The notes below the pieces were generated by a model. It had not been told where the DNA came from. It saw only the letters and a program-made list of their open reading frames with translations, and did no database searches. A DNA stretch of 64,000 bases from positions 3,008,001 to 3,072,000 of the forward strand of contig CP084166.1 in assembly GCA_021513695.1 (NCBI GenBank), read 5' to 3'. Both the position numbers and the translations under genes were made by a program. The DNA is from Candidatus Heimdallarchaeum aukensis (GTDB lineage: Archaea; Asgardarchaeota; Heimdallarchaeia; Heimdallarchaeales; Heimdallarchaeaceae). Of this stretch, positions 234-34,209 are shown in pieces (within the stretch, counting starts at the first letter, position 1; each line of letters begins with the position of its first letter).

Positions 234-995
234 TTATAAACTATCTACCAGATAAGTGTTGTTTTTGAAAGCTACAATCCTTACTTTTTCTCCTTTCTTG
301 AATTTATCAAAAGGACTGAAAGTTTTAGCATGCAGTTTTGTTAAACCTATATTTTGCCCTAAATCAACGACAATTATTCCTCCTTTTACATCTACAGAAA
401 CGAAAACCTCACCTATCTCCCCAACAAGCTGTTCTCCTTTTGGAACAATAATTGAAGTAGTAGCAGAAAGTTTTCTCCATGTTTTAGATAAAATCCAAGC
501 TAAAAAGTAGGGAACAACAAAAACACTTACTATACGTACGATTCTTAAACTAAGATCATCAGAAGAAATTCGAAGTGTTGAAACCCCTAAAATACCAAAG
601 ATTAGGAAATAGGTAGACATTAATAGGAATAAAGGAGCTGAAGAACGAGTAATATCAATACTTTCAACTACGGCTTTCGAAACTTTATGAGGGGTAAGAT
701 CAGAGACGTCTCCACTTTCACTGCTGACTTCATGGTCACCTACATCATGATCTCCAATATCATGGCTCACATCATGTCCCCCTATGTCATGATCTCCTAC
801 ATCATGGCTTATGTCATGCCCTCCAATATCATGATCTCCTATATCATGGCTTACATCGTGTCCTCCAAAAGCCTCTGTAATATTTTCAATGTTGAGAACA
901 AATGAAAGAATTACTAACAATGCTCCACTAATTAATAAAGCTAAAGCTATATTCCATAGTATTGTTTCAAAATTAAGTAAAAATTCAGGATTCAA
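234..995 (-). CDS. NfeD-like membrane protein: N-terminal TM helices, a His/Asp-rich repeat linker and a C-terminal NfeD OB-fold domain
   Basis: The hydrophobic N-terminus is followed by the linker GGHDVSHDIGDHDIGGHDISHDVGDHDIGGHDV... and an NfeD-type C-terminal beta domain (GEQLVGEIGEVFVSVDVKGGIIVVDLG...VRIVAF). Confidence 0.55.
   Translation of the reverse strand: MNPEFLLNFETILWNIALALLISGALLVILSFVLNIENITEAFGGHDVSHDIGDHDIGGHDISHDVGDHDIGGHDVSHDIGDHDVGDHEVSSESGDVSDLTPHKVSKAVVESIDITRSSAPLFLLMSTYFLIFGILGVSTLRISSDDLSLRIVRIVSVFVVPYFLAWILSKTWRKLSATTSIIVPKGEQLVGEIGEVFVSVDVKGGIIVVDLGQNIGLTKLHAKTFSPFDKFKKGEKVRIVAFKNNTYLVDSL
687..905 (-). repeat. Imperfect 15-nt-period tandem repeat (about 9 units) inside the NfeD-like CDS, encoding HD(I/V)(G/S)(D/G) units
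   Basis: DNA units of the form catcatg(a/g)tctcc(t/a)a(t/c)at repeat in series and translate to a His-Asp pentapeptide repeat. Confidence 0.7.
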
Positions 996-1181
996 TTTCT
1001 TCTTCCTCTTTTTCCTTTTCGATTAAAAATAGGACATGGTGATTTAAAAATCTTGATAAATAAATTCTATTAAAAATTAAAAACTAGTTTTTGAAAATCT
1101 ACAAAATGTAATAAAATAAAAAGGTACATTTGATAAATACAAAAATTTATCTTTAGAAAATAAAAGTTGGACTTGAAATAA

Positions 1182-2573
1182 TTGCGTTCTCTAAGTGTGT
1201 GCACAAAAATTTTGGAAGAGCAAGGAATAAACTATTCTATATACGAACTTGATTCTAAGTCGTTTAGCATAATAGACCCAAGAGTAAAAAAAAGAATAGA
1301 ACAAGTGAAACAAATAGCTGAGAGCTTGAATTGTGTAGTAGGAATAGTTGGTGGATTTATTCGAGACTTGTTATTAAAAAAACCGAGTAAAGATGTTGAT
1401 TTTGTAGTTATTGAAGGTGATTTAGAAAAATTAACAGAAGAAATTGCAAAAAAACTAAAGGCAAAAAAGGCTATAATTCATAACCAAACCTTAACTACGC
1501 AAATACGCTTCGGAGAAGGAATAGTATTTGAGTTTAATGCACCTAGAGTGGAAAGTTATGAGCCTTTGTCTCGCGTCCCAAAGGTAAGAAGAGGAACAAT
1601 AATAGATGATTTAACAAGGAGAGATTTCACTATCAATTCTTTTATACTTTTTGAAAACAAATACTTAGACATTTTTAACAGTAAAAAAGATCTTCTTGAA
1701 GGGATCATTAGAACTACAAGAGAACCATCAATTGTTTTCTCTGAAGATTACTTAAGAATATTTAGAGCAATAAGATTCGCATGTTTACTGGATTTTAAGA
1801 TAGAAGAGAAAACAAAGAAAGGAATAATAGAGAATGCACATCAGCTTAGTTTTGTAGCTAAAGAAAGAATAATTGAAGAGATAAGATTGACAGCTAAAAA
1901 GGATATAGTTTGCTGTTTCAAATTAATGACAGAACTGGCAATTATTCATACTCTTTTTCCTGAATTGAAAAACGAAAAAATAAATGATACTTACATAGTT
2001 TCTTTAAAATATGAAAAAATAGAGAAAGAGCTAGAACTTGTCAAACAACAAAAAGGGATAAACTATTTCCTTTGTTTTTTTGCTTTAGTAATGAAAGAAC
2101 AATTTATTGAAAAGGAAAATTATCTGGCAAAAATCAAAAATGAATTAAAAAAATTCAAGTTTTCAAAAAAAGAGATAGAAAAAATTTTGCTTATTATTAA
2201 ATATTCAAATACTCTAATACACCACATTTTTTATCCTGTTTCAAAAAAAGAATTAGGATTATTGTTAAGAGAAATATTTGAAATTAGAGAAGAAGTTATA
2301 GCTATAAATATTGCAGAAAACAAACTCTTAAAGAAGAAAAATAAAAATTTAGAAAAAATAATAGGCGATTTAAGAGAATTAAGTAAAGATAAAGAACTAA
2401 TTTTTATAAAACCTGCAGTAAATGGTAATGAACTAATGGAATTGGGAATAAAAAAAATGGAAATAAATCAATGTAAAGAATTTTTAATACATGCCTTGAT
2501 GGATGAGCAGCTAGAAAACACAAAGGAAGAATGTATTAAATATGTTAAAAGATATTATCTCCAGAAACGATAG
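1182..2573 (+). CDS. Class II (PolA-head) nucleotidyltransferase, CCA-adding enzyme / poly(A) polymerase family
   Basis: The GGFIRDLLL motif followed by DVDFVV matches the GGxVRD...DxD pol-beta-like signature of class II tRNA nucleotidyltransferases. The rest is a long alpha-helical body. Confidence 0.55.
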   Translation: MRSLSVCTKILEEQGINYSIYELDSKSFSIIDPRVKKRIEQVKQIAESLNCVVGIVGGFIRDLLLKKPSKDVDFVVIEGDLEKLTEEIAKKLKAKKAIIHNQTLTTQIRFGEGIVFEFNAPRVESYEPLSRVPKVRRGTIIDDLTRRDFTINSFILFENKYLDIFNSKKDLLEGIIRTTREPSIVFSEDYLRIFRAIRFACLLDFKIEEKTKKGIIENAHQLSFVAKERIIEEIRLTAKKDIVCCFKLMTELAIIHTLFPELKNEKINDTYIVSLKYEKIEKELELVKQQKGINYFLCFFALVMKEQFIEKENYLAKIKNELKKFKFSKKEIEKILLIIKYSNTLIHHIFYPVSKKELGLLLREIFEIREEVIAINIAENKLLKKKNKNLEKIIGDLRELSKDKELIFIKPAVNGNELMELGIKKMEINQCKEFLIHALMDEQLENTKEECIKYVKRYYLQKR

Positions 2574-2636
2574 TCATATCACATAAAATTTGTTTTTTAT
2601 GAATTTTAAATTAGTACATTTAAGCTCTAATCAAAA

Positions 2637-4556
2637 ATGAGATTTTCTGTTTTAAGAAATCCGATAACTTTTAATAGAATAAATGGTTGGTTTAATAATA
2701 TGATTAAATATCAATATGATATTTCCAATTATTTGGCAATTGAAACAGCTGGAGGAGTTGATTGGCATCCAATTGAACGAAAACTAGTTTTTACTTATAA
2801 TGCTCCTGGTTTGTTTCAGATATTTGAAACCAGAGTAAAAGAAGGAGTAACTGGGAGTGTTATTCAATTATCATCTGATGAAAATCGTAGTACAGATCCT
2901 TGTTTCTTGAGTGATGGTTCAATAGTTTTTCATAGAGATTTTGGTGGGAATGAGAATTTCCAACTTTTTGTTCTTAACAATTCAAACAAGGAGCAGAAAA
3001 TAACTTCAGACTATAATGCTAAGCATATTGTTTTATTCACTTCAGAGTCATATTTGTATTATAGAGCTAATATCACAAACAAATCTAAATTTGAAATTTT
3101 TAGGCAAAAAATACCCGTTTTACATAATCCTCCTGAAAAGATTTTCTCTCCCGAGGAAGGATTGCCTACCTCTTTACTTACTAATGATGATAATTTGTGT
3201 GTTATAGTTATTTCCTACGGAAATACAAATGAGAAAGTTATACTTTATGATGTTAATTCAGGAGAAGTGACTAACTTAACAGAATCACTTAAAAACGGAG
3301 AAAAGGAAACTTACCGTTGGGAAACCATTCGCTGGATAGATGATTCGCATTTACTTGTCGCAACTGACTTTAACAGTGATATCATAAGACTAGGAGTCCT
3401 TGATATTAATGGAAATTTCAATGAAATTAGTAATTTAGAACAAAAATACGAATTTAATGTTGCTACTTACAGAAAGGGAAGTAAAAAAACTTATTTCTCC
3501 ATTAATAAAGAGGGGTTTGATGAGCTGTTTTGTTGTGAATTTACAACTAAAGAGGCCCAGAATATAGAAAAAGTAGATCTTCCTTCCAAAGGAGTAATAC
3601 TTTATGGTGATACAAGATCATTTTCTAAAGCTATGTCATTATCTTACGATGGAAAATTTCTAGCAATATCTTTTTCTTCATCAACAATCCCTTCATCTCC
3701 ATGGCTAATAGATCTGGAAACAAAAAAAGCCTGGCCTGCAATTGAAGTAAGAACTGCAGGGATACCAATACACTCATTCGTAGATTGTAAACTAGAAAGG
3801 TTTTCAAGTTTTGATCAATTGTCTGTTCCCTACTTTATTTATTATCCTAACATCGAAAAACCAAAAAATGGTTTTCCAGCTTTGATTCTCATTCATGGAG
3901 GACCAGAATCTCAAATCAGACCTTATTTTAACCCAGTTATTCAATTCTTTGTTGCTGCAGGGTACGTAGTAGTAACACCTAATATCAGAGGAAGTTCAGG
4001 ATATGGACGCAAGTATATGGACCTTGATAACGTAGAAAAAAGGTTGGATTCAATAAAAGATATCGCATTTCTTGCTGAGGAGCTTAAAAAGAATGAGCAA
4101 ATAGATCCTTCAAAACTGATTGTTTATGGAGCAAGCTATGGTGGATTTGCAGTCTTATCTTCTTTAACAGAATATCCTGATATATGGGCCGCAGGGGTTG
4201 ATATTGTAGGAATTTCTAATTTCGTTACTTTTCTGCAAAATACAGCTAGTTGGAGAAGAAAATTGCGAGAAGCAGAGTACGGTAGCCTAGAAAAAGATTT
4301 AGACGTGCTAAAGTCTATTAGCCCCATAAATAAAATTGAAAGAATTAAAGCCCCCCTGTTTATTGTCCATGGAGACAATGATGAACGTGTTCCTCTATCT
4401 GAAACGTTACAAATGTATGAAAAAATGAAACAAAAAGGACTAAATGTAGCTCTTCTTCGTTTCTCAGATGAAGGACATGGTATAACAAAATTACCTAATA
4501 AAATTAAAGCTTATACTAAAATCCTTGAATGGTTAAATACTCTTCTAAAAAATTAA
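2637..4556 (+). CDS. S9 family serine peptidase (prolyl oligopeptidase / acylaminoacyl peptidase-like) with an N-terminal beta-propeller
   Basis: The C-terminal alpha/beta hydrolase domain carries GGPESQ, the nucleophile motif GASYGGF, Asp in HGDNDERVP and His in SDEGHGI. The N-terminal ~350 aa look propeller-like. Confidence 0.75.
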   Translation: MRFSVLRNPITFNRINGWFNNMIKYQYDISNYLAIETAGGVDWHPIERKLVFTYNAPGLFQIFETRVKEGVTGSVIQLSSDENRSTDPCFLSDGSIVFHRDFGGNENFQLFVLNNSNKEQKITSDYNAKHIVLFTSESYLYYRANITNKSKFEIFRQKIPVLHNPPEKIFSPEEGLPTSLLTNDDNLCVIVISYGNTNEKVILYDVNSGEVTNLTESLKNGEKETYRWETIRWIDDSHLLVATDFNSDIIRLGVLDINGNFNEISNLEQKYEFNVATYRKGSKKTYFSINKEGFDELFCCEFTTKEAQNIEKVDLPSKGVILYGDTRSFSKAMSLSYDGKFLAISFSSSTIPSSPWLIDLETKKAWPAIEVRTAGIPIHSFVDCKLERFSSFDQLSVPYFIYYPNIEKPKNGFPALILIHGGPESQIRPYFNPVIQFFVAAGYVVVTPNIRGSSGYGRKYMDLDNVEKRLDSIKDIAFLAEELKKNEQIDPSKLIVYGASYGGFAVLSSLTEYPDIWAAGVDIVGISNFVTFLQNTASWRRKLREAEYGSLEKDLDVLKSISPINKIERIKAPLFIVHGDNDERVPLSETLQMYEKMKQKGLNVALLRFSDEGHGITKLPNKIKAYTKILEWLNTLLKN

Positions 4557-5955: not shown

Positions 5956-7506
5956 ATGAGCTCTATGACTGAAGAAAATAAAATAGAAAAAGTAATTGAT
6001 GTTTGTCTCCGTAGAGGTTTCGTTAACCAAACTGCAGAAATTTATGGTGGAGCTTCAGGTTTTTTTGATTTAGGGCCTTTGGGTACCCTAATGCGTCAAA
6101 AACTAGTTGATTTTTGGAGACAATTATTTGTACTTGATAATGATAACGTCTTTGAAATTGATGGTTCTTTGCTACTACCAGAAAGTGTCTTCAAAGCTTC
6201 AGGGCATCTAGATTCTTTTGAAGACCCTCTAATCCAATGTAAAAATTGTAAATCTATGTACCGAGCAGACCATATAATCTCTCAAAATACAGGTATAAGT
6301 GCAGAAGGTTTGTCATTAGAAGAACTTGATAAAATTGTAGAAGAAAATAAAATTGTCTGTCCAAGTTGTAAAGGAGAGCTTGACAAAGCAAGACAGTTTA
6401 ATCTAATGTTTAGCACTGGAATTGGCCCTGTTAGTGGAAATAAAGGTTATCTTAGACCTGAAACAGCACAAAATATTTTTGTTAACTTTAAACGCTATGC
6501 TTCTTTCATGAGGAATAAGCTTCCTTTTGGAATTGCACAAGTAGGTAAGTCATTTAGAAATGAAATCTCTCCTAGGAACTTTCTCATAAGAGTTAGAGAG
6601 TTTGAGCAGATGGAAATTGAAATGTTCTTTGATCCTGAGCAGGCAAATGATTTTTCTCTCTTTGATTTTGTTGAAGATGTTGAAATTAATGTGGTAACAA
6701 AAGAGATGCAAGAAAAAGAGTGGTCTAAACCTCTATTAATTAGTGTTAAGGAAGCAATAGAAAAGGGAATAATACCAAACCAAGTTATGGGTTACTTTAT
6801 TGCTATGGAGAGTGAAATGCTACAAGCTTTGGGTATTCCCAAAGATTCTTTCTGGTTTAGATACATGCTACCACATGAAACACCACACTATTCTGGTGGT
6901 AATCTAGACCTTGAAGTAAAATTGTCTATTGGCAAAGTAGAAATAATAGGAAATGCTTATAGAACAGATTACGATTTAAAGAAACATCAAAAAGCTTCTA
7001 AATCTACCTTTACAATTGTATCAAATAACAAGAAAGTTTTACCCCATGTCGTAGAACCATCAATGGGTGTAGGTAGAATACTTTACACAGTTTTGGAATA
7101 TTGTTATAGAGAAGATGAAAGTAGATCTTGGTCTTGGTTCAAATTCCCAGCATCAATAGCTCCGATAGAGATCGCTGTTTTTCCATTAATGAAAAAAGAT
7201 GGACTTGCGGAATATGCTCAAGATTTACATTTAGATCTAAAGGACGCTGGTTTTGTTTCCTTTTATGATGATACAGGGAAAATAGGAAAAAGATATGCAC
7301 GAGCAGACGAGATTGGAATATTATACTGTATAACTGTTGATTATGAAAGCTTAGAAAAAGATACAGTAACGATCAGAGATAGAGATTCAACTAAACAAAT
7401 AAGAGTGTCTATTGAAGACCTTGAAGATGTTTTGGATGCACTTTTAGAGGAAGAGTTAACCTTTGAAGAACTAATTGAAAATCAGAAATATTTAATAGAG
7501 CAATAA
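5956..7506 (+). CDS. glyS: Glycyl-tRNA synthetase, archaeal/eukaryotic dimeric class II type
   Basis: Contains IYGGASGFFDLGPLG, motif 2 FRNEISPRNFLIRVREFEQMEIE, and a C-terminal anticodon-binding domain. A CxxC...CxxC insertion lies at roughly aa 95-140. Confidence 0.85.
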   Translation: MSSMTEENKIEKVIDVCLRRGFVNQTAEIYGGASGFFDLGPLGTLMRQKLVDFWRQLFVLDNDNVFEIDGSLLLPESVFKASGHLDSFEDPLIQCKNCKSMYRADHIISQNTGISAEGLSLEELDKIVEENKIVCPSCKGELDKARQFNLMFSTGIGPVSGNKGYLRPETAQNIFVNFKRYASFMRNKLPFGIAQVGKSFRNEISPRNFLIRVREFEQMEIEMFFDPEQANDFSLFDFVEDVEINVVTKEMQEKEWSKPLLISVKEAIEKGIIPNQVMGYFIAMESEMLQALGIPKDSFWFRYMLPHETPHYSGGNLDLEVKLSIGKVEIIGNAYRTDYDLKKHQKASKSTFTIVSNNKKVLPHVVEPSMGVGRILYTVLEYCYREDESRSWSWFKFPASIAPIEIAVFPLMKKDGLAEYAQDLHLDLKDAGFVSFYDDTGKIGKRYARADEIGILYCITVDYESLEKDTVTIRDRDSTKQIRVSIEDLEDVLDALLEEELTFEELIENQKYLIEQ

Positions 7507-7564
7507 ACTTAAACCTTAAAAACAATGTAATAAATGTCAAAATGAATTATAGAAAGTGAGTAAA

Positions 7565-7711
7565 ATGACCAAATATATCTGCCAAAATTGTAAAACAGAA
7601 ATTACACCTAATGATTTAAGACTTCTTCCAGGTGTAAAGTGTCCTAAATGCAGTCATAGAATATTAATTAAGAAACGTTCTCTTATAGCAAAGCCAGTGA
7701 AGGCTCGATAA
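7565..7711 (+). CDS. rpoP: DNA-directed RNA polymerase subunit P (RpoP/Rpb12-like zinc ribbon, 48 aa). Missed by the ORF track because it is shorter than 60 aa
   Basis: The translation MTKYICQNCKTEITPNDLRLLPGVKCPKCSHRILIKKRSLIAKPVKAR matches the RpoP pattern YxCxxC...RCPxCGx+IL.K.R. Confidence 0.65.
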   Translation: MTKYICQNCKTEITPNDLRLLPGVKCPKCSHRILIKKRSLIAKPVKAR

Positions 7712-7752
7712 TCTTCTTTTTATCTATTTTTTATCTATTTTTATTTAATTAA

Positions 7753-9357
7753 TTATTGTAGAAGTTCAACAACTTCAGCTTTTACTAATTTATCTGAGAG
7801 AGCATCAGTTATTTTTACTCTAGCTACCCTTTTTAGTATATCACTTTCGAATTCAATACTTACAGCAGGACCTGCGTTAATGAAATATCCAATGTAAGTA
7901 TTCTTTCTTTTGAAATCTTTCTCTGCGATAATAACAGTTTCTGTTTTTCCAATTAATTCCTTCTTTTTCTCCTTATTGAATGAAATAATAGTCTGTTTCA
8001 ATTCTTCTCGCTTTTTATGTAAAAGATATCTTTCAGGAGGAGAAGAAACATTCATTTTAGTAAAAGGGCTGTTGGGAAGAGCTAAATATTTGTATACTGT
8101 AACTTTATCTGCAACGTTCCATAAGCGTTTTCTTATTACATCAGTTGTTTTTTCAAGGGCTGATACTGTTTCCCCTGGTAAGGAATGAATAAGATAAATT
8201 TGTGGTTTCAATCCTGCTTCTGTTAAGAGTTTAGCTGCTTTCATTGCTCTTTCAGGGGAAGAAGGTCTTCCTAATTTTCTACTTAATTCTTCATCAAAAG
8301 TCTCACAACCTATAGAAATGGGAGTACCTGGTAGGTATTTGCCTAGAATTTCAGCTACTTGTTTATTTATTAGAGTAGGTTTAACATTTTCAATTATAAT
8401 AGATCTATTGGGTTTCTCATCTCTTATTTCTGCTAGTTCAGAAAGTAGTTGTTCTATCGCTTGTATATTAGGTTCTGGATAAGATGGAGAAACAACTTGA
8501 CCATCTTTCCCTCTCATATAGTCCAAAAAACCAGGAGCAGAAAGAACTATCCTATTTACCCCTAGATCAAATAATTCTCTTATTTCTTTTACGATTAATT
8601 CATGAGGACGACTGATTGGAGCTCCGAAAGTTGTGGGGACACTGCAAAACCCACAACCTGGTGGAATATTAGCAGGACAGTCTATTAGCTCTACTTCTCT
8701 CTCTACTGAGTCAGTACAAAATCCGCAATCAGGGCATAAACCTTTATCTTGTACTAATTCTCCTCTTATAAAGTTTGAACATCCTCTGACAGTTTCCACA
8801 TAAACTCTAGCAAACCAATATTCTTCATAGTCAGTTATAACTTTAGTAGAGGGGTTGTAATTAAAAATATAATATCCTTTTGCCTTCTTCTCTTTTATAA
8901 GATAAGTTTTTCCTATTTTTTCTATCTCAAACTGTTCTCTGTTGTTTTCAATGAAACTTAGAATTTCGAATTTGTTCTCAATCAATTTGTCAAGAAATAA
9001 TTCTCCTTGTCCTTGAACAGCTGCTGTGACTTTTAATTGAGAAACGAAATCAACATCAGAAGTAACAGGTCCACCAACGAAGATTTTTGGTAGCATTACT
9101 TCTGTTTTTAACATTCTTACTATTTCTATTACAGCGATTTCGTCAACACTCATTCCACTAATTAAAAAAGCATCAAAGGAAGTTAAATCATAGTTGTGAT
9201 TTCTAGAGAGTAAATTTTCAGCTCTAATTACCTTAGAGTAAATGTTTTTGTATTCACATATACCAGCAAGTAATCTCGGTCCTACTCCAATTACATCTCT
9301 AGTAAATTTTCTTTTTCCATCATTTGAAGCAAGAGCATCAACAATTAGAATTTTCAC
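7753..9357 (-). CDS. Putative Fe-S/radical-SAM-like enzyme with a B12-binding-like N-terminus and a C-terminal TRAM domain, with a non-canonical Cys cluster
   Basis: N-terminus MKILIVDALAS...; Cys-rich segment RGCSNF...CPDCGFC...CPANIPPGCGFC; C-terminal TRAM-like OB domain (GKTETVIIAEK...VARVKITDA). MiaB/MTTase-like architecture but without the classical CxxxCxxC motif. Confidence 0.4.
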   Translation of the reverse strand: MKILIVDALASNDGKRKFTRDVIGVGPRLLAGICEYKNIYSKVIRAENLLSRNHNYDLTSFDAFLISGMSVDEIAVIEIVRMLKTEVMLPKIFVGGPVTSDVDFVSQLKVTAAVQGQGELFLDKLIENKFEILSFIENNREQFEIEKIGKTYLIKEKKAKGYYIFNYNPSTKVITDYEEYWFARVYVETVRGCSNFIRGELVQDKGLCPDCGFCTDSVEREVELIDCPANIPPGCGFCSVPTTFGAPISRPHELIVKEIRELFDLGVNRIVLSAPGFLDYMRGKDGQVVSPSYPEPNIQAIEQLLSELAEIRDEKPNRSIIIENVKPTLINKQVAEILGKYLPGTPISIGCETFDEELSRKLGRPSSPERAMKAAKLLTEAGLKPQIYLIHSLPGETVSALEKTTDVIRKRLWNVADKVTVYKYLALPNSPFTKMNVSSPPERYLLHKKREELKQTIISFNKEKKKELIGKTETVIIAEKDFKRKNTYIGYFINAGPAVSIEFESDILKRVARVKITDALSDKLVKAEVVELLQ

Positions 9358-9507
9358 AAAAGAATAGTTTTTTCACTTTTTAAAAAGATTAGTTTTGTTA
9401 AAATAATTCAGAAATTAGAATTGAATTGCTTTTAAAATATTCACACTGCTTTTAAAAAAATATATAGAAAAAAAATATTGTTTAATTGTTGTTTTTTTGT
9501 ATATTAT

Positions 9508-9614
9508 AGTACTTCCGCAATAAGTTGACTGATTTCTATAGGTTAAAATTATAGGAGTTCATACTATCATTGGCGTGTTCTCAATTCATACTTTTTGAGA
9601 TAATTCGGAAGTAC
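9508..9614. repeat. 107-bp element bounded by a perfect 11-bp inverted repeat (tagtacttccg / cggaagtacta); candidate structured sRNA or MITE-like element
   Basis: Exact reverse-complementary 11-mers at 9508-9518 and 9604-9614 lie in the intergenic region upstream of aSUI1. Confidence 0.3.
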
Positions 9615-9662
9615 TAATATTAACAAAAAAATATAAAAAGGATTGGAAGTAACTTTTTATGA

Positions 9663-9974
9663 ATGGAAGAAGATTTGTGTCCAGTATGTGGTTTACCTCA
9701 AGACCTTTGTGTCTGTGAGGGGTTAGCAAAAGAAGTGCAGATAATTAGAGTTTATTTAGAAAAAAGAAGATACGGCAAGAACTATACGTGCATATCAGGG
9801 ATTGATCCAAAAGAAGTCGACTTGGGAAATTTAGCGAAAAAACTTAAGACCCAACTTGCTTGTGGAGGAACGTACAAAGATGGAAGAATTGAGTTGCAAG
9901 GAGATCATAGATTTAAAATAAAAGATTTACTTGTAAACGCAGGTTTTCCCGCGGAAAATATAGAAGTGCAGTAA
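9663..9974 (+). CDS. Translation initiation factor SUI1/eIF1 homolog (aSUI1) with an N-terminal zinc knuckle
   Basis: CPVCGLPQDLCVCE followed by RRYGKNYTCISG and ACGGTYKDGRIELQGDHR, which is the archaeal aSUI1 signature. Confidence 0.9.
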   Translation: MEEDLCPVCGLPQDLCVCEGLAKEVQIIRVYLEKRRYGKNYTCISGIDPKEVDLGNLAKKLKTQLACGGTYKDGRIELQGDHRFKIKDLLVNAGFPAENIEVQ

Positions 9975-10057
9975 GAAAGCTTTTTCTATTTTTTTATATC
10001 TTTATTAAAACTCTTAACCCATATTCTTAAATTAGTCTAAATTTTATTTTCTTAATA

Positions 10058-10309
10058 ATGAAGAAAAAAAAGAAAGAGAAAAAAGAAAAGCCAATGCGAG
10101 ATAGAGTGGAAGTTTGTCCGATTTGTTTTTCAATTGTAAAAAGATCTCCCCAAATCTTTGATGTCAACAGTACTTTTCACTGTACTAATAGTGATTGTGG
10201 ATGGAGTGGTTCTTTTGCTGTGGAAGTAGATATTAACGAGTATAAGCAATTTGTTAAGGATAGACAAAACAAAAATGAAAGTGATAAGAATAGTAGAGAT
10301 GAACCATAA
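10058..10309 (+). CDS. Small zinc-ribbon protein with a Lys-rich N-terminus
   Basis: CPICF...HCTNSDCGW is a putative four-Cys ribbon. No recognisable family. Confidence 0.35.
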   Translation: MKKKKKEKKEKPMRDRVEVCPICFSIVKRSPQIFDVNSTFHCTNSDCGWSGSFAVEVDINEYKQFVKDRQNKNESDKNSRDEP

Positions 10310-10351
10310 ATTTATTTGATAATATTGTATAAAGAGAGTAGTGAGATAAAA

Positions 10352-11188
10352 ATGGAAATAGCAATTGTTACTGATACAAGTAGAGCACTACCTTCCCAAT
10401 TATATAAATTATACAATGTCTATCCTTTAGGTTATTATTTAGAGGATTCTAAAGGAACGATCTTTGCAGAAAGAGTTAGTGCTCAAGAAGTTCAAACAGA
10501 TAAACTTCTAACAATTGCTGAAAAAGATAAGAATGCCCAACTTTACTCTCCGACTGTAAAGGACTTTGTAGAGTTATACACCTTTTTAGAGGAAGATTTT
10601 GATCATATAATTAGCTTTCATTCTTCGTTATTTACTCCAACTGTTTTTGAAAATGCTATACTTGCAAAAAAGGTAGTTTCTGATATAACAGTTGATGTTC
10701 TGGATACTTATTCTTTTGAGTCTTCCTCAGGATTGATTTTAAATCAGCTAGCTAAAAAAATTCAAGATGCAGAATCAATCAATGAAATAAGAAAAGAAAG
10801 TTTTTCTCTTCATGGTAGAATACATAGTCAATTATTAACAAAAAATGACCAATTCAACAAAATAGGATTAAGAAGAGTTACATTCCTTTCAAATATAAAA
10901 TCAGCTTTTGTTCCTTGGAATCTTTATTTGTTTAAACAAAGTAACTGGGATCTAGTCAAAAATTCTCGTTCAATAAAGACTCTACAATCAGAAATGGAAA
11001 CAAGACTAATCTCTCTTGAAAAATCCAAAGATTTGAAATTTTGTTATTATTCATCTTCAAAAAGACTGAACAAAGAAGTAAAAGAACTTCTAGAAAAATT
11101 GGATAATTTATATGTTGAAGAAACTCCTCAAACTTTAGTCGCCTATTTTCTCACTTCAGAATACTCAATGAATATTTCTGTTCTTTAA
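10352..11188 (+). CDS. Divergent DegV-family (fatty-acid-binding, FakB-like) protein
   Basis: MEIAIVTDTSRALP...YPLGYY...SPTVKDFVELY...HIISFHSS follows the DegV N-terminal pattern. The ORF track's TTG start at 10316 is unlikely; the ATG at 10352 is preferred. Confidence 0.5.
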   Translation: MEIAIVTDTSRALPSQLYKLYNVYPLGYYLEDSKGTIFAERVSAQEVQTDKLLTIAEKDKNAQLYSPTVKDFVELYTFLEEDFDHIISFHSSLFTPTVFENAILAKKVVSDITVDVLDTYSFESSSGLILNQLAKKIQDAESINEIRKESFSLHGRIHSQLLTKNDQFNKIGLRRVTFLSNIKSAFVPWNLYLFKQSNWDLVKNSRSIKTLQSEMETRLISLEKSKDLKFCYYSSSKRLNKEVKELLEKLDNLYVEETPQTLVAYFLTSEYSMNISVL

Positions 11189-11982
11189 CTCTCTTCTTTT
11201 ACTGTTTTTATTCTATAAAAATTTGAAACATTTTCTGTTGTAATATCTGCCAGTTTTTTTACATCCACTTTAATTAATTCTGCAGCTTTTTTTGTTGATA
11301 TTGCTATGGCAGAAGGTTCGTTTTTTTCTCCTTTTCTTAAGCTATGATATGGACTATCAGTTTCAAACATTAACTGAGTTTCCGGAATCAAAGACAAGAT
11401 TTTTTGGAAATTTTTTCTGTAAACTAAACTTGTTGGGACTGTAACAAACCAACCATTATCAACTACTCTTTCAATCTCATTTTCTGTTCCTGTAAAACAG
11501 TGCATTAAAACGTTTTCTAGATTATATGATTCAAGAATATTGATTGCATCTGTTTCTGCAGCTCTCGAATGGATTACAATTGGTTTGTTATTTTTATTTG
11601 CGAGTTCAATAAGACGTCTGAAGAAAACTTTCTGTTCTTTTCTTTTTTCTTCTTCTTTAACCCAATAGTAATCTAATCCAATTTCACCTATAGCTACTAT
11701 AAATTCTGAATTTTTTAATAAAAATTCTTCAATTTTCTTGAAGTTTTCTTCTTCTACTTCTGTTGGTTGCATTCCAATGGTTAGATGAGTCCCATAGTTT
11801 TTTGTTAAAAATACTCCGAATTCAAAGTGATGAGGGCTTAAAATACTATTTATAATTATTTCAACGTTATTTGATCTAGCTCTTTGAACAATTTCTGGTA
11901 TACTTTTTTTTGAGAAAAAAGGAGGGTAAAGGTGACAATGAGCATCTGCAAAAATTATTTTCTGATTTGACATATAATTCAC
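11185..11982 (-). CDS. tatD: TatD-family metal-dependent hydrolase / DNase
   Basis: FADAHCHLY N-terminal motif and TIM-barrel hydrolase features. Overlaps the upstream ArsA stop by 1 nt. Confidence 0.85.
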   Translation of the reverse strand: MNYMSNQKIIFADAHCHLYPPFFSKKSIPEIVQRARSNNVEIIINSILSPHHFEFGVFLTKNYGTHLTIGMQPTEVEEENFKKIEEFLLKNSEFIVAIGEIGLDYYWVKEEEKRKEQKVFFRRLIELANKNNKPIVIHSRAAETDAINILESYNLENVLMHCFTGTENEIERVVDNGWFVTVPTSLVYRKNFQKILSLIPETQLMFETDSPYHSLRKGEKNEPSAIAISTKKAAELIKVDVKKLADITTENVSNFYRIKTVKEES

Positions 11983-12959
11983 TATTTACAAATTATATCT
12001 TTTAGCTTCTTGAGCATCTTTATTCCGCGAATTTCTTGGTTGAAAGCTTCAACAGTAGTTACATCATGGTTTGGAAAAGCTTGTTTGATGTACTCTAAAT
12101 TAGCTAAATGCTCTTTTCTTCTATTCATACAGTAAGGACAACTTTTATTTTCTGGATTAATTTGATTGACAACTATTTCTTTATTCGGAATATAATGTTC
12201 TTTTAATTCTTCAAATAGTCGTTCTGACTCAAAAATAGACATAAGTGTAGGAATTCCAACAATTATAAATTGTGTCTTTTCATCATCCATTAGTGTTTCT
12301 CTGGCTATAAGTATCTTCTCTTTTAATTTTTCTAAGTTCTCTATTGTTCTATCTTTTTCTACATTTCCGCCAAAAAGAGATTTAATCATTGCCATTGTAT
12401 TAGAAATGAAGGTTTTCATTTTCAACATTCTACCAATAAAAGAATCTAAAAATTCTGGAATGTTGAGTAATCTCAATGTATGTCCTGTGGGCGCAGTGTC
12501 AAGTACAATCGTGTCGAATTCTTCATTATCCGCATACTCAAGGATTTTAGCAAAAGATAGAGCTTCATCCATTCCTGGTGGAGGGATTGATTTTAGATCT
12601 TGATCTATTCCCTTCATTGCTTCCATTCCTGGAATAGACATCAAACTAGAGAATTGATCTGCATCAAAGGAATCTCCTAATGCTTTTGTTAGTTCATCTC
12701 CTGATGATTCTGGGTTGATTTCTAAAGCGTACAATTCTCCTTTTACACCTTTAACTTTAGTTACAGTTCCAGATGAAAAATCCAAATCAAAAGAATCTGA
12801 AATGCTGTGTGCAGGGTCTGTTGAAACAAGTAAAGTTTTTTTACCTTTTTCAGCTAAAGCAATAGAAATTGCAGAAGCTATAGAAGTTTTCCCTACTCCT
12901 CCTTTTCCCCCTACCAAAATGAACTTTAGGTCCTTCTCTAATAAATCCTTGATAGTCAT
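11982..12959 (-). CDS. ArsA/Get3-family ATPase (archaeal Get3/TRC40 homolog)
   Basis: P-loop GGKGGVGKT, STDPAHS switch region, and the Get3-type CxxC motif (CPYC). Confidence 0.85.
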   Translation of the reverse strand: MTIKDLLEKDLKFILVGGKGGVGKTSIASAISIALAEKGKKTLLVSTDPAHSISDSFDLDFSSGTVTKVKGVKGELYALEINPESSGDELTKALGDSFDADQFSSLMSIPGMEAMKGIDQDLKSIPPPGMDEALSFAKILEYADNEEFDTIVLDTAPTGHTLRLLNIPEFLDSFIGRMLKMKTFISNTMAMIKSLFGGNVEKDRTIENLEKLKEKILIARETLMDDEKTQFIIVGIPTLMSIFESERLFEELKEHYIPNKEIVVNQINPENKSCPYCMNRRKEHLANLEYIKQAFPNHDVTTVEAFNQEIRGIKMLKKLKDIICK

Positions 12960-13073
12960 TAATATAGAAAAAAATCGACTCTTATTTAAAGATAAATATT
13001 AGTGATTAATAGAACTTTTAAGTAAAATAAAAAAAACTCTCGAAAAATAAAAATAGATAAAGAAAACAAATTT

Positions 13074-13838
13074 TTACTTTCTACGTTTTCTTTTCTTAAT
13101 TTTTCTTTTTTGTTCTTGTTTTGTTTTATGTGGTTTTTTAACCAATGGGGAAATCTTTCTTGAACTTCTTCTTCGTTTATGAACTTTCTGTATAGCGAAT
13201 AAATCTACAATGATTATAGTAGTGAATACTCCAACGATACCCAAGACAAAATAGAATAAGTTTAACCATTTTTCCGAGTCTATAACTTCTACATTTTCAG
13301 GTAATACGACATTTAACGAGTATCTTTGAGAATAAGACTTGTACATAACACTATTTTCATCATAGTATTTTATCTCTGTGGCTTCTAAGGTAAAGTTTCC
13401 TTCAAGTAAAGGTTGGATGTAATAAGTATAAACGAAGCTAGCATTTATTTCAACTTGTATATACTTTTGCTCTGTCAAATTAAAAGTTGAAACTGCCCAC
13501 TCTTCAAAGCTTGGTTCTGTAATAGAAAGATTATACGCTGTTCTGTTTCCAATATTGGTTATATTTAGGTCAATTCTAATCCATTGCAAAGGCTCAAGTT
13601 CAGTAACGTTAATTACCTTCTTTATAGCTAAAAGTGGTCTGCTAGGTAATGTATCATTAGTGTCATTTAATGCTAAATATGGTCGATAGTAATTTCTCTC
13701 TGGTTCCTGAATTTTTTGAATCTGGTCATTGTTGTTTATTACACTGTTGGAACCACTAATAAATGATGAATTTACAGCTAAAACTAACATCACAACTAAT
13801 ACAAATCGTAAATACTTTCTTCCGGGCATATGTTTCAT
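13074..13838 (-). CDS. Secreted or membrane-anchored protein with many N-glycosylation sequons, a C-terminal TM helix and a Lys/Arg-rich tail
   Basis: Signal-peptide-like N-terminus, multiple NxS/T sequons (NDTNDT, NVT, NITNIGNRT, NLS, NLT, NAS, NFT), and a C-terminal TM followed by KRRRSSRK...KKRKRRK. Confidence 0.45.
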   Translation of the reverse strand: MKHMPGRKYLRFVLVVMLVLAVNSSFISGSNSVINNNDQIQKIQEPERNYYRPYLALNDTNDTLPSRPLLAIKKVINVTELEPLQWIRIDLNITNIGNRTAYNLSITEPSFEEWAVSTFNLTEQKYIQVEINASFVYTYYIQPLLEGNFTLEATEIKYYDENSVMYKSYSQRYSLNVVLPENVEVIDSEKWLNLFYFVLGIVGVFTTIIIVDLFAIQKVHKRRRSSRKISPLVKKPHKTKQEQKRKIKKRKRRK

Positions 13839-14036
13839 TATCCTTTTATTGCTTATGGAGCATGAAATAATCTCGTTTAAATATTTTGCTCTTGGAACTA
13901 GAAATAAGCTAGCGCTTTATTTACTTATCGCCTATTTTTTTCCTTATATTTAGATGTTATTTTAAGAATTCTAGGTAACAATATTTTATGGTAAAAGAAC
14001 ATAGTAACAATTATAAAAAGGTGGATTTGTTTTAAA

Positions 14037-14936
14037 TTGAGAGCAATGACTGTTAAAATTCTATGTGATACTAGTGCAGATTTGAATCTTCCCACTGATC
14101 AAACAATCTATGACAAATATAACATTGGAACTTTTCCCATGCATGTTATTTTTGGAACGAATGATTATAGAGAATTAGTTGACATAAAAACTTCTGAATT
14201 CAGGAAAAAGATCTATGAAACAGATGTTCATCCCACCACTTCTCAACCAACACAATTTGATATCTTAACACAATTTGAGAAGTTTGGAAAAGACTACGAT
14301 GAAATCATATCATTTCATATCTCATCAAAATTAAGTGGGAGCTATGCTAATGCAAAAATAGCTAAAAAAATGTATGAGAAATCAAATAAAGAACATGCTA
14401 AAGTGTATTTAGTTGATAGTTTATTAGCTAGTTCAGCTTTTGGACTTGTAGTTATTAAAGCCGCTAAGTTAGCAGAAGAAGGTCTGTCTGGACAAGAAAT
14501 AGTTGATAAAATAAACGATTGGAAAAAAAATAATATAGTTGTTTATTTCACTGTAGAGAACTTAGAGTGGCTTTATCGCGGAGGTAGATTAAGTAAAACT
14601 AAGTACTATTTAGGTAGCATGTTAAACAAAAAACCAGTTTTAACATTAGTTGATGGAGAAATTGTGAGTGCAAAGACTGTTACAGGAATAGAAAAAACTT
14701 TTGATACTATAATTGACCTTGCCTTTAAACGCTTTCCAGAAGTTGAGCAGGAGAGAATAATGTACAATATTATCGAATTTGATTACAAAGATGTAGTAGA
14801 TGATGTAATTCAGAAAACGAAAAACAAGTATCCTAATGCTAAAGAAGGAAAAGTGTTTGAAATGGGAGGAACAATTGCAGCTCATACTGGTCCAAAAACT
14901 CTAGGGTTTATTGTTACCAAAGATTTTGAATTTTAA
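14037..14936 (+). CDS. DegV family protein (fatty-acid-binding, FakB-like)
   Basis: VKILCDTSADL...TSQPT...ISFHISSKLSGSY... are the classic DegV motifs. Confidence 0.85.
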   Translation: MRAMTVKILCDTSADLNLPTDQTIYDKYNIGTFPMHVIFGTNDYRELVDIKTSEFRKKIYETDVHPTTSQPTQFDILTQFEKFGKDYDEIISFHISSKLSGSYANAKIAKKMYEKSNKEHAKVYLVDSLLASSAFGLVVIKAAKLAEEGLSGQEIVDKINDWKKNNIVVYFTVENLEWLYRGGRLSKTKYYLGSMLNKKPVLTLVDGEIVSAKTVTGIEKTFDTIIDLAFKRFPEVEQERIMYNIIEFDYKDVVDDVIQKTKNKYPNAKEGKVFEMGGTIAAHTGPKTLGFIVTKDFEF

Positions 14937-15003
14937 TTTCTTTTTTTTCTTTTCTTTTTTGGAAAAAGATTTATTCAACACATTTTAAGTTAGTTTGAAA
15001 TAG

Positions 15004-15912
15004 ATGACAATAAAGATTTTGTGTGATACTTCAGCTGATCTTGTCTTACATCCAAATAAGCCACTGTATGACTCGCTAGGTGTTGGAATTCTTCCCATGA
15101 AAGTTTTTTTTGATGAGAATGATGTTTTTTTAGAGCAAAAAAATATTAGTAACATACAGTTTTATGAGTTAATAAGACTCTCCCAGACCCAACCTAAAAC
15201 CTCTCCTCCTTCAGCAGATGATATATTTAAAGAATTTCAAAGATATGGAAGAGAATATGATGAACTAATTTCTTTACATATTTCTAAAGATTTAAGTCAT
15301 ACATATTTTAACGCTGTTGAAGCAAAGAAGAGATACTTGAAAACTGAATCAAATCCAGCCAAAATAAATATAATTCATAGTGGTGTTGCAAGTTTAGCTC
15401 TGGGAAAACTTGTATTGAAAGCTGTTGAACTTAAAAATAAAGGTTTTGAAACTTCTGAAATTATAAAACAACTTTATTCTTGGAAAGAAAATAATGTTAA
15501 AGCAGCTTTTACTGTTAGAGATTTAAATTGGTTATATGAAGGAGGAAGACTTACAAGGTCACAGAAAACAATAGGTACAATATTAAATAAAAAACCTGTT
15601 CTTACTTTTGATCATGGAAAAATCAATGTAATTGGTTATTCAACAGGATTGGAAAGAACATTGAGATTTATGGTTAAATATCTCTTATCACAGATGGAGG
15701 AGGAGAAAATAAACAAACTTACCTTGTCTTTTATCACAGCACAGAATTTTGGTTTAATAGATGACTTCTCAAGAGTAATAAAGAAAGAATTTCCGAAAAT
15801 TAATTTAGGTCCTAAATTTGAGCTAGGTGCAACAATTACTAGCCATACAGGAATGGAGACAATAGGTTTTGTAATTTCAAGTAATCTTAAAATAGATCCT
15901 TTAATAAAATAA
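15004..15912 (+). CDS. DegV family protein (paralog 2)
   Basis: MTIKILCDTSADL...TSPPS...ISLHISKDLSHTY. Confidence 0.8.
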   Translation: MTIKILCDTSADLVLHPNKPLYDSLGVGILPMKVFFDENDVFLEQKNISNIQFYELIRLSQTQPKTSPPSADDIFKEFQRYGREYDELISLHISKDLSHTYFNAVEAKKRYLKTESNPAKINIIHSGVASLALGKLVLKAVELKNKGFETSEIIKQLYSWKENNVKAAFTVRDLNWLYEGGRLTRSQKTIGTILNKKPVLTFDHGKINVIGYSTGLERTLRFMVKYLLSQMEEEKINKLTLSFITAQNFGLIDDFSRVIKKEFPKINLGPKFELGATITSHTGMETIGFVISSNLKIDPLIK

Positions 15913-16035
15913 TTAACTTAACTTTAATGTTTTCTTACGTGTTGGCTATATTTGCCACTATAAAACAAGAATCTTTAAAGATTTTTTTCTTAAAAAAGAT
16001 TTAAAAAAAAGCGTTTTATATACAATTGAACACAA

Positions 16036-16926
16036 ATGACAGTAAAAATAATGACCGATAGTGCAGCAGATATTCCCGAATATCTCCTAAAGGAGTATGA
16101 TATCTCTACAGTCCCCACAGTAATCAGATTTGGTGATGATGTCTATTATGAAAACAAAGATTTGACTTTGGATCAATACTATGAACTATTTCATTCTCAT
16201 CCAGAACCACCTCAAACAGCTAATCCTACTTTAGCTGATGACTTTGAATTATACAAAAAACTAGGAGAAGAAGCTGATGAAGTGATAAATATTGTTATTT
16301 CTAGCGGTATTTCTGGTTCATTCAACACTTCTAATGCTGCTTTGAAAATGTATGAAAAGAGAGTAAAAGATGGTGCAAAAGTATATGTCTTTGATTCACA
16401 TTTTGCTACAATGGGTATAGGTGTCCAAGCTTTAAAGGCTTCAGAGATGGCTAAAGAAGGACATAATGCAGCTGAAATATTGGCAATGTTAGAAGAATAC
16501 AGAGACAAATTAGCTGTTGCTTTCACAGTAGATAATTTAAAGTATCTCCATAGAGGAGGAAGATTGTCAAAATCTAAATTTTGGATAGCCAAACTAGCTG
16601 ACTTACATCCTGTGATTACTTTTATTGATGGAAAAATGGAAGTTGAAAAGACTTCTAGAGGTTATGATAATGCAATGGAAAAAGCTTTTGATCTATCTTG
16701 GGAAAAAACGAATAAAGCTAAGAAATTCAATGCCTATATCTGTTATGGAGAAAATAAAGAACACGCTCTATACATGAGAGATTATATCCAAGATAAAGTA
16801 GATGCAGAATTTAATATCGAGATATATCAAGTAGGAGCAACAATAATTACCCATACAGGTCCAGAAGTAAGTGGAATACTGCTTGATCCTTATAATGAAA
16901 AACTCTATAAAGCATCAGAAAAATAG
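16036..16926 (+). CDS. DegV family protein (paralog 3)
   Basis: MTVKIMTDSAADIP...VISSGISGSF... Confidence 0.85.
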   Translation: MTVKIMTDSAADIPEYLLKEYDISTVPTVIRFGDDVYYENKDLTLDQYYELFHSHPEPPQTANPTLADDFELYKKLGEEADEVINIVISSGISGSFNTSNAALKMYEKRVKDGAKVYVFDSHFATMGIGVQALKASEMAKEGHNAAEILAMLEEYRDKLAVAFTVDNLKYLHRGGRLSKSKFWIAKLADLHPVITFIDGKMEVEKTSRGYDNAMEKAFDLSWEKTNKAKKFNAYICYGENKEHALYMRDYIQDKVDAEFNIEIYQVGATIITHTGPEVSGILLDPYNEKLYKASEK

Positions 16927-16927
16927 G

Positions 16928-17665
16928 ATGGATTGTATGATATCCTTTGATGCTTTTTTCTTTGACTTAGATGGGACTTTAATAGACTTTAATCCCAATA
17001 ATTTTGTAAAAATCTATTTAGGAGCTGCTGCAAAGTATTTTAAGGATTTGATACCTGATAGTGACTATTTTATTCAATCAATATTAGATTCAACAAATGT
17101 AATGGAAATGGCTGAAACTCCAAAGAAACTAGCTTTATACGACTTTTTTGATGATTTTTGTCAAAAGTTCGATCCTGAATGTTCAACTATAATTCAGAGA
17201 TTTAGAAATTTCTATAATGAAGGTTTTAATGTAGTAGAGAAAATTATAAGACCTATTCCTTACGCTGAAACTGTTCTTTCATTTATTAGAGACAATTATC
17301 CAAAAAGCAAAATTGTTCTAGCAACAAATCCGGTTTTTCCAGAAGTAGCTATTATTAAAAGATTGAACTGGGGGGGATTGTCAGAAAATCTTTTTGATTA
17401 CATTACCCATGCTGAAAATAGCTATTATTGTAAAGGTTCTTTAAATTATTGGATAGACTTAGCAAAAAAACTTGATGTGAAACCTGAGAAAACATTGGTT
17501 GTAGGAAATGATGGAGAACGTGATATGATTGCCAAAAAAGCTGGTTTCAAGACATTCTTTTTGACACAAACTGCTGAAAATGAGCACTCCATAGAGAAAT
17601 ACAAACCGGACTACAAAGGGAGCTTGGAATCACTATTAAATTTATTAAATGAAAAGAAAGACTAA
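16928..17665 (+). CDS. HAD-superfamily hydrolase
   Basis: FFFDLDGTL motif I, plus the downstream ATNP and GNDGERD motifs. The ORF track start at 16871 overlaps the upstream DegV; the ATG at 16928 or 16937 is more likely. Confidence 0.7.
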   Translation: MDCMISFDAFFFDLDGTLIDFNPNNFVKIYLGAAAKYFKDLIPDSDYFIQSILDSTNVMEMAETPKKLALYDFFDDFCQKFDPECSTIIQRFRNFYNEGFNVVEKIIRPIPYAETVLSFIRDNYPKSKIVLATNPVFPEVAIIKRLNWGGLSENLFDYITHAENSYYCKGSLNYWIDLAKKLDVKPEKTLVVGNDGERDMIAKKAGFKTFFLTQTAENEHSIEKYKPDYKGSLESLLNLLNEKKD

Positions 17666-34079: not shown

Positions 34080-34209
34080 TCCTTTTTTTATTTTACTGTT
34101 TATTTTTTGTTTTGAGAATAGTAATTTTGTATTTTCATTTAAAAAAATCATTTTTTAAGAACAATAAATCTTTAATATTGAAAAGTTGTAAATGAATGTG
34201 TTGATATAA

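Follow-up and report, generated by a model that had tools for sequence, protein, structure and literature searches.

What is a set of bacterial-type fatty-acid-binding proteins doing in an archaeon that is expected to make isoprenoid lipids? The question is raised by a 64,000-nucleotide (nt) stretch of the genome of "Candidatus Heimdallarchaeum aukensis" (contig CP084166.1, positions 3,008,001 to 3,072,000), here called the window. A preliminary description of this DNA, made from its sequence alone, had noted three tandem genes of the DegV family, a divergent fourth DegV gene, and accompanying HAD hydrolases. The DegV family includes the bacterial FakB proteins, which bind fatty acids for the Dak2-type fatty-acid kinase FakA. 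We call the tandem genes D1, D2, and D3 and the divergent gene D4; D3 is followed directly by a gene for a HAD-superfamily phosphatase. On balance, we favor the view that D1 to D3 are functional FakB-type binders that present fatty acids to an unlinked Dak2-type kinase.

All three tandem genes belong to the DegV family, as had been proposed. Each matches the Pfam DegV model (PF02645; cutoff, 27 bits) over its full length, with scores of 226 bits for D1, 172 bits for D2, and 256 bits for D3. Each also gave a full-length match above the cutoff of 99.7 bits to the NCBIfam model TIGR00762 (240, 187, and 258 bits, respectively). Their alignments with solved DegV structures run from one end of the proteins to the other. 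When D3 was compared with the PDB, the best matches, again over the full length, were the fatty-acid-bound DegV proteins of Bacillus subtilis (3fys; E value, 6e-37) and Thermus thermophilus (2dt8; 6e-33), with 29 to 35% identity; Staphylococcus aureus FakB1 was matched at about 3e-30. The canonical DegV proteins of related Heimdall genomes fall into two clades, Da and Db. D1 is the Da ortholog and is 46 to 48% identical to the first DegV gene of other Heimdall genomes; D3 is the Db ortholog and is 57 to 59% identical to its counterparts. D2 is 39% identical to D1.

We compared functional residues, numbered as in S. aureus FakB1, in an alignment of 59 sequences that included 11 Da, 2 D2, 9 Db, and 7 D4 proteins and 29 bacterial references. 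In FakB1, the carboxylate of the fatty acid is held by Thr62, Ser95, and His270, with Ser171 (PMC8892158, PMC9136124, PMC10848957). Arg173 is essential for phosphotransfer by FakA and dispensable for fatty-acid binding (PMC9136124), and Arg205 (R202 in Streptococcus suis FakB2) binds both FakA_C and the membrane (PMC8892158, PMC9136124, PMC10848957). T62, S95, and H270 proved to be invariant in the Da (11/11), D2 (2/2), and Db (9/9) sequences, as did R173, which lies inside a conserved GGR motif in all 22 of them. The same four residues are kept in 27 to 29 of the 29 bacterial references. At position 205, in a loop where the alignment is less certain, eight of the nine Db proteins have R and the ninth has K. 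D3 retains all five residues. D1 retains all except R205, which is replaced by T, and D2 retains T62, S95, R173, and H270 with H in place of G96 and K in place of S92.

Loss of lipid-pocket residues, which the preliminary description had named as the sign to look for, was thus not seen in D1 to D3 (T62, S95, G172-R173, and H270 are kept) but was seen in D4, which is discussed below. Because the four residues are invariant and D3 matches fatty-acid-bound structures from end to end, D1 to D3 are, by sequence criteria, competent FakB-like proteins. The proposal of fatty-acid handling, made for all four paralogs, holds up as far as the intact pocket residues of D1 to D3 are concerned and fails for D4, which lacks the carboxylate triad. 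The locus as a whole suggests that Heimdall archaea handle free fatty acids.

In the mechanism that we propose, each of D1, D2, and D3 would draw a single free fatty acid, or a long-chain carboxylic acid like it, out of the membrane and into a buried tunnel. A hydrogen-bond network of Thr, Ser, and His would hold the carboxylate and show it at the protein surface beside the conserved Arg, where a Dak2-type kinase encoded at another place in the genome would convert it to an acyl-phosphate, the compound that PlsY uses as its substrate in bacteria. Staphylococci, streptococci, and enterococci have two to four FakB isoforms, and by analogy the Heimdall paralogs most likely prefer different acyl chains. 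The phosphatase encoded directly after D3 probably acts on a phosphorylated intermediate of the same route. D4 could be a noncatalytic partner or regulator, or it could bind a lipid that has no carboxylate. In this picture, the ligand, the kinase partner, what becomes of the product, and the parts played by HAD and D4 are inferred; the data themselves establish the family, the fold, the conservation of residues and locus, purifying selection, and archaeal residence.

Several observations weigh against such a route, the first being that its kinase is not in view, as the preliminary description had already remarked. Pfam scans of ∼55 open reading frames (ORFs) of the window found no Dak2 or FakA domain, none of the ORFs of ≥110 amino acids (aa) in the 64 kb has such a match, and a phmmer search for FakA gave nothing better than an E value of 0.03 in 1,721 ORFs of ≥60 aa from the window and 38 loci (634 kb). 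The scan reached at most 10 kb to each side of the locus, less at contig ends, in 26 assemblies; the query, a sequence of B. subtilis FakA, was checked by its score of 559 bits to S. suis FakA (7w7h_A). One of two published reconciliations puts the copy number of the FakA family, COG1461, at about 0 in Heimdall ancestors (PMC10307638). Second, position 205 in Da and D2 is occupied by T or S (K in one case), again in the loop of less certain alignment. Third, the scores of D1, D2, and D3 against the FakB1 equivalog model NF038249 (148, 133, and 167 bits) fall short of its cutoff of 350 bits. Because this model covers just the FakB1 isoform of the staphylococcal type, D1 to D3 are not orthologs of that isoform but may well belong to the wider FakB-like family. 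Fourth, no subfamily or substrate could be assigned to the HAD phosphatase from its NCBIfam matches, which are far below the cutoffs, or from the PDB, where the best match is only 5e-4. Lastly, PlsC is absent from the two Heimdallarchaeum species according to Wu et al. 2022 (PMC8813620), and cultured Lokiarchaeia were reported to show archaeal lipids only (PMC13400652). The step from fatty-acid handling to a mixed lipid metabolism, which had also been put forward, was not borne out here.

Two considerations bear on the kinase. Bacterial fakA is usually unlinked to fakB, and so the absence of a kinase gene near the locus says little. Also, the published Asgard table contains nine proteins of the COG1461/K07030 (FakA) family (Eme et al. 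2023, PMC10307638, supplementary file 6), which makes it plausible that a partner kinase is encoded elsewhere in the genome. The other reconciliation in that study gives copy numbers of ∼1.3 to 1.4 for COG1461 in two Heimdallarchaeia ancestors (PMC10307638).

The same results could be read to mean that D1 to D3 bind fatty acids but serve no kinase. Such orphan carriers would form a buffer or shuttle, either clearing toxic free acids from the isoprenoid membrane or feeding an acyl-CoA synthetase and β-oxidation. The empty kinase scan around the locus in the 26 assemblies speaks for this idea, as does the apparent lack of the FakA-binding R205 in Da and D2. Asgard ancestors are inferred to have had enzymes of β-oxidation and fatty-acid metabolism (PMC10307638, supplementary text), and the window encodes electron transfer flavoprotein (ETF) alpha and beta plus two FixC/ETF-QO-like genes. 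However, R173, which is essential for phosphotransfer and dispensable for binding, is invariant in the three canonical clades, R205 appears to be kept in Db, and the usual separation of fakA from fakB takes most of the force from the empty scan. We therefore regard orphan carriers as possible, if somewhat unlikely, and still favor presentation of the fatty acid to a kinase.

A different doubt concerns the ligand. The canonical copies might bind an archaeal lipophilic carboxylate, e.g., an isoprenoid-derived acid, in which case the paralogs would reflect archaeal lipid turnover. That would suit a host expected to make isoprenoid lipids, and with only 29 to 35% identity to any bacterial DegV, the tunnel-lining residues could differ. 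Yet every ligand-bound DegV matched in our PDB searches carries a fatty acid, and the head-group site is unchanged in the canonical copies. We consider an archaeal ligand very unlikely, and a fatty acid remains the presumed cargo of D1 to D3.

The locus is conserved among related genomes. When a single genome from each GTDB species was covered by a pattern scan, 27 loci in 26 assemblies were obtained, and every ORF in these loci was scored. All of the loci are labeled Heimdallarchaeota except for one labeled "Thorarchaeota" and one labeled "Promethearchaeati." Their common gene order is radical-SAM (minus strand), SUI1, an 83-aa zinc-ribbon protein, D4, TatD, Get3, and TRAP-beta (these three on the minus strand), Da, Db, HAD, a membrane protein, and a second HAD; the constant core consists of D4, Db, and HAD. 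Wherever a locus includes this stretch, a zinc-ribbon ortholog is present between SUI1 and D4. In the window and in "Candidatus Heimdallarchaeum endolithica," a block of ∼11 kb intervenes between the DegV array and the second HAD. Synteny alone is no proof of a functional link, because the conserved block also holds housekeeping genes.

The number of canonical DegV copies per locus varies from one to three, plus local reduplications, and some genomes have Db only. Among the loci examined, D2 was confined to contigs of the Heimdallarchaeum type: the window, H. endolithica, and contigs nearly identical to these. Another Heimdall lineage has undergone an independent segmental duplication of Da-Db (positions 7474 to 10876 of locus L027, 3801 to 6893 of L029, and 3108 to 5460 of L038). 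Here the order is Da, a Db remnant of 95 to 113 aa, a second Da (Da'), and Db, with Da' split into two ORFs in L029. Changes in copy number by local duplication are as expected for a family that diversifies its substrates.

Since DegV is an overwhelmingly bacterial family, the genes could in principle be an artefact: bacterial contamination, a misbinned contig, or the decaying relics of a recent transfer. Decay might seem to be visible in one related contig (L002, Logan SRR15988958, positions 958 to 3588), in which D3 is identical to that of the window, the HAD gene is split into two ORFs, and the membrane-protein gene is split into three; these broken genes reflect either pseudogenization in a strain variant or assembly error. 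Other features of the locus speak for genuine archaeal residence. The neighboring genes are archaeal or eukaryote-like (TFIIB, SUI1, Get3/ArsA, TRAP-beta, and a Ras-family GTPase), and G+C content is uniform, at ∼30%. The same gene order, found in all 27 loci, occurs on the closed 3.33-Mb chromosome of H. endolithica (CP084167.1), whose genes at this locus are 90 to 94% identical to those of the window (94% for D3); the Asgard host that the preliminary description had assumed is thereby confirmed. The ratios of nonsynonymous to synonymous substitution rates (dN/dS) between these two species are 0.066 for D1, 0.056 for D2, 0.051 for D3, and 0.08 for HAD; dS is 0.6 to 0.85 for the DegV and HAD genes and 0.5 to 0.9 between the two genomes. 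The genes are under purifying selection, and the low ratios at this level of synonymous divergence mean that they are maintained genes of sister species. We find an artefact hardly credible.

The clades Da and Db comprise ∼50 Heimdall protein clusters each, after which identity drops to 29 to 35% for the nearest bacterial relatives, which are from halophilic Bacillaceae, Clostridia, and Chloroflexota; the best named bacterial matches to a Heimdall profile were DegVs of halophilic Bacillaceae. For D3 itself, ∼53 Heimdall clusters at 51 to 74% identity are followed by bacterial proteins at ≤31%. Because the nearest bacterial relatives are only 29 to 35% identical, contamination and recent transfer are excluded, and the DegV family is, judged by these comparisons, old in the Heimdall lineage. 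In neighbor-joining trees, bootstrap values were 99 for Db, 100 for D4, 100 for the D2 pair, and 72 for Da plus D2. A group of all canonical Heimdall clades with the protein P0054 received only 43%, and 27% when D4 was included, and so the tree does not separate a single acquisition from multiple acquisitions. P0054 is a Db-like DegV encoded on another contig (L009, JGI 3300029812, positions 2099 to 2977). It shares 41% identity with D3 and falls in with the Db clade (bootstrap, 96%). Its gene is flanked by those of an MFS transporter (major facilitator superfamily) and an alpha/beta-hydrolase, and no HAD accompanies it. P0054 may be a sign of the family beyond Heimdallarchaeaceae.

D4 stands apart from the canonical copies. 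Its status as a divergent fourth DegV was confirmed by a match of 53.8 bits to the N-terminal half of the Pfam DegV model, which is above the cutoff, although its score against TIGR00762 (53.2 bits) is below the cutoff for that model. All seven D4 orthologs have L or I at position 62 and P at position 95, and all lack the stretch with His270. At position 173 there is R in four, K in two, and G in one, and the Gly that precedes it is lost, so the GGR motif has become G-[LVSI]-[RK]. The column of R205 has R in 7/7, with the same reservation about the loop alignment. Since T62, S95, and H270 are lacking, D4 should not be counted as a binder of fatty-acid carboxylates.

Nevertheless, D4 keeps the fold of the family. 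An AlphaFold2 model had a mean confidence score (pLDDT) of 92.4, although canonical DegVs in the input alignment may bias the model. With Foldseek, it gave template modeling (TM) scores of 0.80 to 0.82 to FakB1 (5uto and 7scl) over ∼288 columns and 0.50 to FakA (7w7h_A). Profile-profile homology between D4 and Db is weak (53% probability, columns 1 to 214). When 1.84 billion cluster representatives were searched exhaustively with HMMER, only four D4-type proteins appeared at E values of ≤1e-30, after which the values dropped to 2e-14, and the named members are from Heimdallarchaeaceae. The dN/dS value of D4 versus H. endolithica is 0.055. Selection thus maintains D4 as a lineage-specific protein with a DegV fold that has lost the canonical head-group site, and the D4 clade offers a small and clear case of a lipid-binding fold reused for another purpose.

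We considered whether D4 is a stand-alone adaptor resembling FakA_C (PF13684; 6w6b and 7w7h), the DegV-like domain that docks FakB and that, like D4, has lost residues of the head-group site. This was ruled out by the TM scores, about 0.8 for FakB versus 0.5 for FakA. FakA_C lacks the conserved Arg (PMC10848957), whereas D4 mostly keeps Arg or Lys at position 173, superposes better on FakB, and has no match to PF13684 in the Pfam scan. For these reasons, D4 is not an ortholog of FakA_C.

The HAD phosphatase is the gene most firmly tied to a DegV. In 26 of the 27 loci it comes directly after Db, and the contig of the remaining locus stops before this point; apart from D3 and HAD, no genes of the block are tightly coupled. 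In the window, 10 nt separate the D3 stop codon from the HAD start, and the two genes are probably cotranscribed. The protein scored 48.9 bits against Pfam Hydrolase, above the cutoff, and also matched HAD_2. Orthologs are 46 to 48% identical. HAD motifs I to IV are recognizable in 25 orthologs: motif I (FDLDGTL, with both Asp residues), T130-N-P, and G-N-D192-x-x-R-D196 are invariant, as are both candidates for the Lys of motif III, K125 and K166. The statement that the DegV genes sit with HAD hydrolases needs to be narrowed. One HAD is tightly linked to D3, and this pairing is conserved, but the other lies 13 kb away as part of a larger synteny block, and the gene that adjoins D4, which might have passed for a second HAD, encodes TatD. 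An origin of a DegV-HAD module from Firmicutes was also considered and rejected. The one bacterial pair of neighboring DegV and HAD genes that we found, in Virgibacillus, has an unrelated HAD of the dehalogenase type (DxY motif) that is not significantly similar to the one from Heimdall genomes.

Beyond HAD lies the gene for a membrane protein, for which no Pfam family could be assigned. The protein has about six N-terminal transmembrane segments, a charged linker, one more transmembrane segment, and a C-terminal domain with a weak likeness to glycoside-hydrolase TIM barrels (Glyco_hydro_cc or Glyco_hydro_42 in 5 of 20 orthologs; best E value, 0.0012). Orthologs of ∼570 to 575 aa were found in L005, L006, L008, L011, and other loci, with 35 to 36% identity in L005 and L006. 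In at least 20 loci the gene is on the plus strand, 43 to 57 nt after HAD; in the window and in H. endolithica it is inverted. Its part in a DegV system is uncertain.

The wider interest of the locus lies in the question of how the archaeal ancestor of eukaryotes passed from isoprenoid-ether to fatty-acyl-ester membranes. PlsX and PlsB have not been found in archaea, while PlsY and PlsC occur in some Asgard bins, including a Heimdall metagenome-assembled genome (Coleman et al. 2019, PMC6431249). A Fak-type route would fill a known gap, because archaea lack PlsX and some Asgard archaea with PlsY have no source of acyl-phosphate. In a 2026 study, FakA and FakB were used to feed PlsY, which accepts both enantiomers of glycerol-phosphate, and a 2024 preprint argued that fatty-acid synthesis is widespread in archaea, with the relevant gene pairs abundant in Asgard genomes. 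Published Asgard surveys have covered GpsA, GlpK, PlsB, PlsX, PlsY, PlsC, and β-oxidation genes; we found no mention of DegV or FakB in Asgard archaea in the literature searched, and the supplements of Wu et al. 2022 contain no DegV, Dak2, or PlsY terms.

One could go further and propose that Heimdallarchaeaceae run the whole bacterial-type fatty-acid kinase route. FakB-like proteins and a Dak2 kinase would provide a PlsY-type acyltransferase with acyl-phosphate, GlpK would supply glycerol-3-phosphate, some ester-linked acyl-glycerol lipids would result, and D4 and HAD would be lineage-specific additions. We think this extension unlikely. The locus is relevant to the lipid divide and is not yet evidence on membrane lipids. 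Even so, a family-wide, selectively maintained FakB-like set with an intact phosphotransfer site is a concrete candidate for the missing acyl-phosphate step. Should D1 to D3 instead prove to be carriers that serve no kinase, they would still testify directly to the management of free fatty acids by Heimdallarchaeia.

The gene models are collected in the table below. For D1, the ATG at 14046 is a more likely start than the TTG at 14037, because gene calls in related contigs are 296 aa long. The HAD gene likely starts at the ATG at 16937, giving 242 aa, rather than at the GTG at 16871. AT-rich, TATA-like boxes lie 5′ of each DegV gene and an oligo-T tract follows D1; at 30% G+C these are weak evidence, and we made no use of them. 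The zinc-ribbon protein had no Pfam match.

Features of the DegV locus and its surroundings (positions within the window)
Feature	Coordinates	Strand	Basis or position
D1, DegV paralog of clade Da, 296 aa; predicted canonical FakB-like protein	14046..14936	+	Pfam DegV and TIGR00762
D2, DegV paralog, 302 aa; fast-evolving extra copy from the Da lineage	15004..15912	+	Pfam DegV
D3, DegV paralog of clade Db, 296 aa; core gene of the locus and best-conserved copy	16036..16926	+	Pfam DegV
HAD-superfamily phosphatase, 242 aa	16937..17665	+	Pfam Hydrolase, HAD_2
D4, divergent DegV paralog, 278 aa; specific to Heimdallarchaeaceae	10352..11188	+	Pfam DegV, N-terminal half
Lys-rich small zinc-ribbon protein, 83 aa	10058..10309	+	CPIC...HC..C in the sequence
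TatD	11185-11982	-	Between D4 and the tandem DegV array
Get3/ArsA-type ATPase, 282 bits	11982-12959	-	Between D4 and the tandem array
TRAP-beta (translocon-associated protein beta) homolog	13074-13838	-	Between D4 and the tandem array
Membrane protein, 567 aa	17840..19543	-	Hydropathy scan and ortholog comparison
Second HAD hydrolase (outside 10352-17665)	30442-31134		Pfam scan

Other genes of the window are worth recording. A bona fide glycerol kinase, GlpK, is encoded at 27616 to 29115 (minus strand; 684 bits against TIGR01311, with a cutoff of 590 bits, and 720 bits against NF000756). The gene lies ∼10 kb from the DegV array, beside a GT2 glycosyltransferase and the second HAD, and its product would be sn-glycerol-3-phosphate. 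According to published surveys, Asgard archaea largely lack GlpK and other routes to glycerol-3-phosphate (PMC6431249, PMC13400652). The GT2 gene (29155 to 30387, minus strand) belongs to the same extended synteny block; its closest NCBIfam models, matched far below their cutoffs, are the lipid-directed HpnB (hopanoid associated) and CruG (a carotenoid 2′-O-glycosyltransferase).

A tandem duplication of ∼4.86 kb with 98 to 100% identity occupies 33023 to 37877 and 37878 to 42733. It contains genes for an M24 peptidase, a TPR protein, a 231-aa ORF, and a FixC/ETF-QO-like flavoprotein, and it adjoins the ETF alpha and beta genes (42734 to 44510, minus strand); it could be a very recent event or an assembly artefact. 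At 1182 to 2573 (plus strand) is a gene for a nucleotidyltransferase like the class II (bacterial/eukaryotic-type) CCA-adding enzymes, with a PolyA_pol head and RNA-binding domains; it fits a 2026 preprint on class II CCA enzymes in Asgard archaea that names Heimdallarchaeum. A TnpB/Cas12f-like protein (TNB domain match; 46788 to 48245, minus strand) is encoded next to the Ras-family small GTPase (48566 to 49072, minus strand; 114 bits). The adjacent Get3/ArsA and TRAP-beta genes, whose products belong to eukaryote-like targeting of membrane proteins, diverge from the DegV array and are kept as a pair in 27/27 related loci. In bacteria, no other family is associated with heliorhodopsin genes as strongly as DegV is (bioRxiv 10.1101/2021.02.16.431466); no rhodopsin domain was found in the window.

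How does the locus compare with known systems? One alternative arrangement of kinase and binder is seen in single-chain Dak2-FakA_M-DegV fusions of ∼600 aa, which were the next-best matches to the D4 profile after ordinary DegVs. As candidates for the Heimdall kinase they were rejected, because the fusions are bacterial: all eight clusters checked were bacterial wherever a source was named (Spirochaetia, Marinimicrobia, Mcinerneyibacterium, and Fictibacillus). Moreover, the DegV domain of the fusions is canonical, whereas the Heimdall proteins stand alone and no Dak2 domain is encoded at the related loci.

Among the closest counterparts are the FakB systems of S. aureus (FakB1 and FakB2) and of Streptococcus pneumoniae and S. 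suis (FakB1 to FakB3). D1 to D3 differ from these in their archaeal host, in an identity of only ∼27 to 31%, in missing the FakB1 equivalog cutoff, and in that no FakA was found in the scanned sequence. Tight linkage to a HAD phosphatase is, to our knowledge, not a feature of any characterized FakB system. What they share is the Pfam family, the protein length, end-to-end alignment, and an identical Thr-Ser-His network with the catalytic Arg, and in both cases there are several paralogs per genome; Arg205, in the loop of less certain alignment, appears to be kept in Db and not in Da or D2. The DegV/FakB family is a known one, and what is new is its presence in an unusual archaeal lineage, together with the degenerate variant D4.

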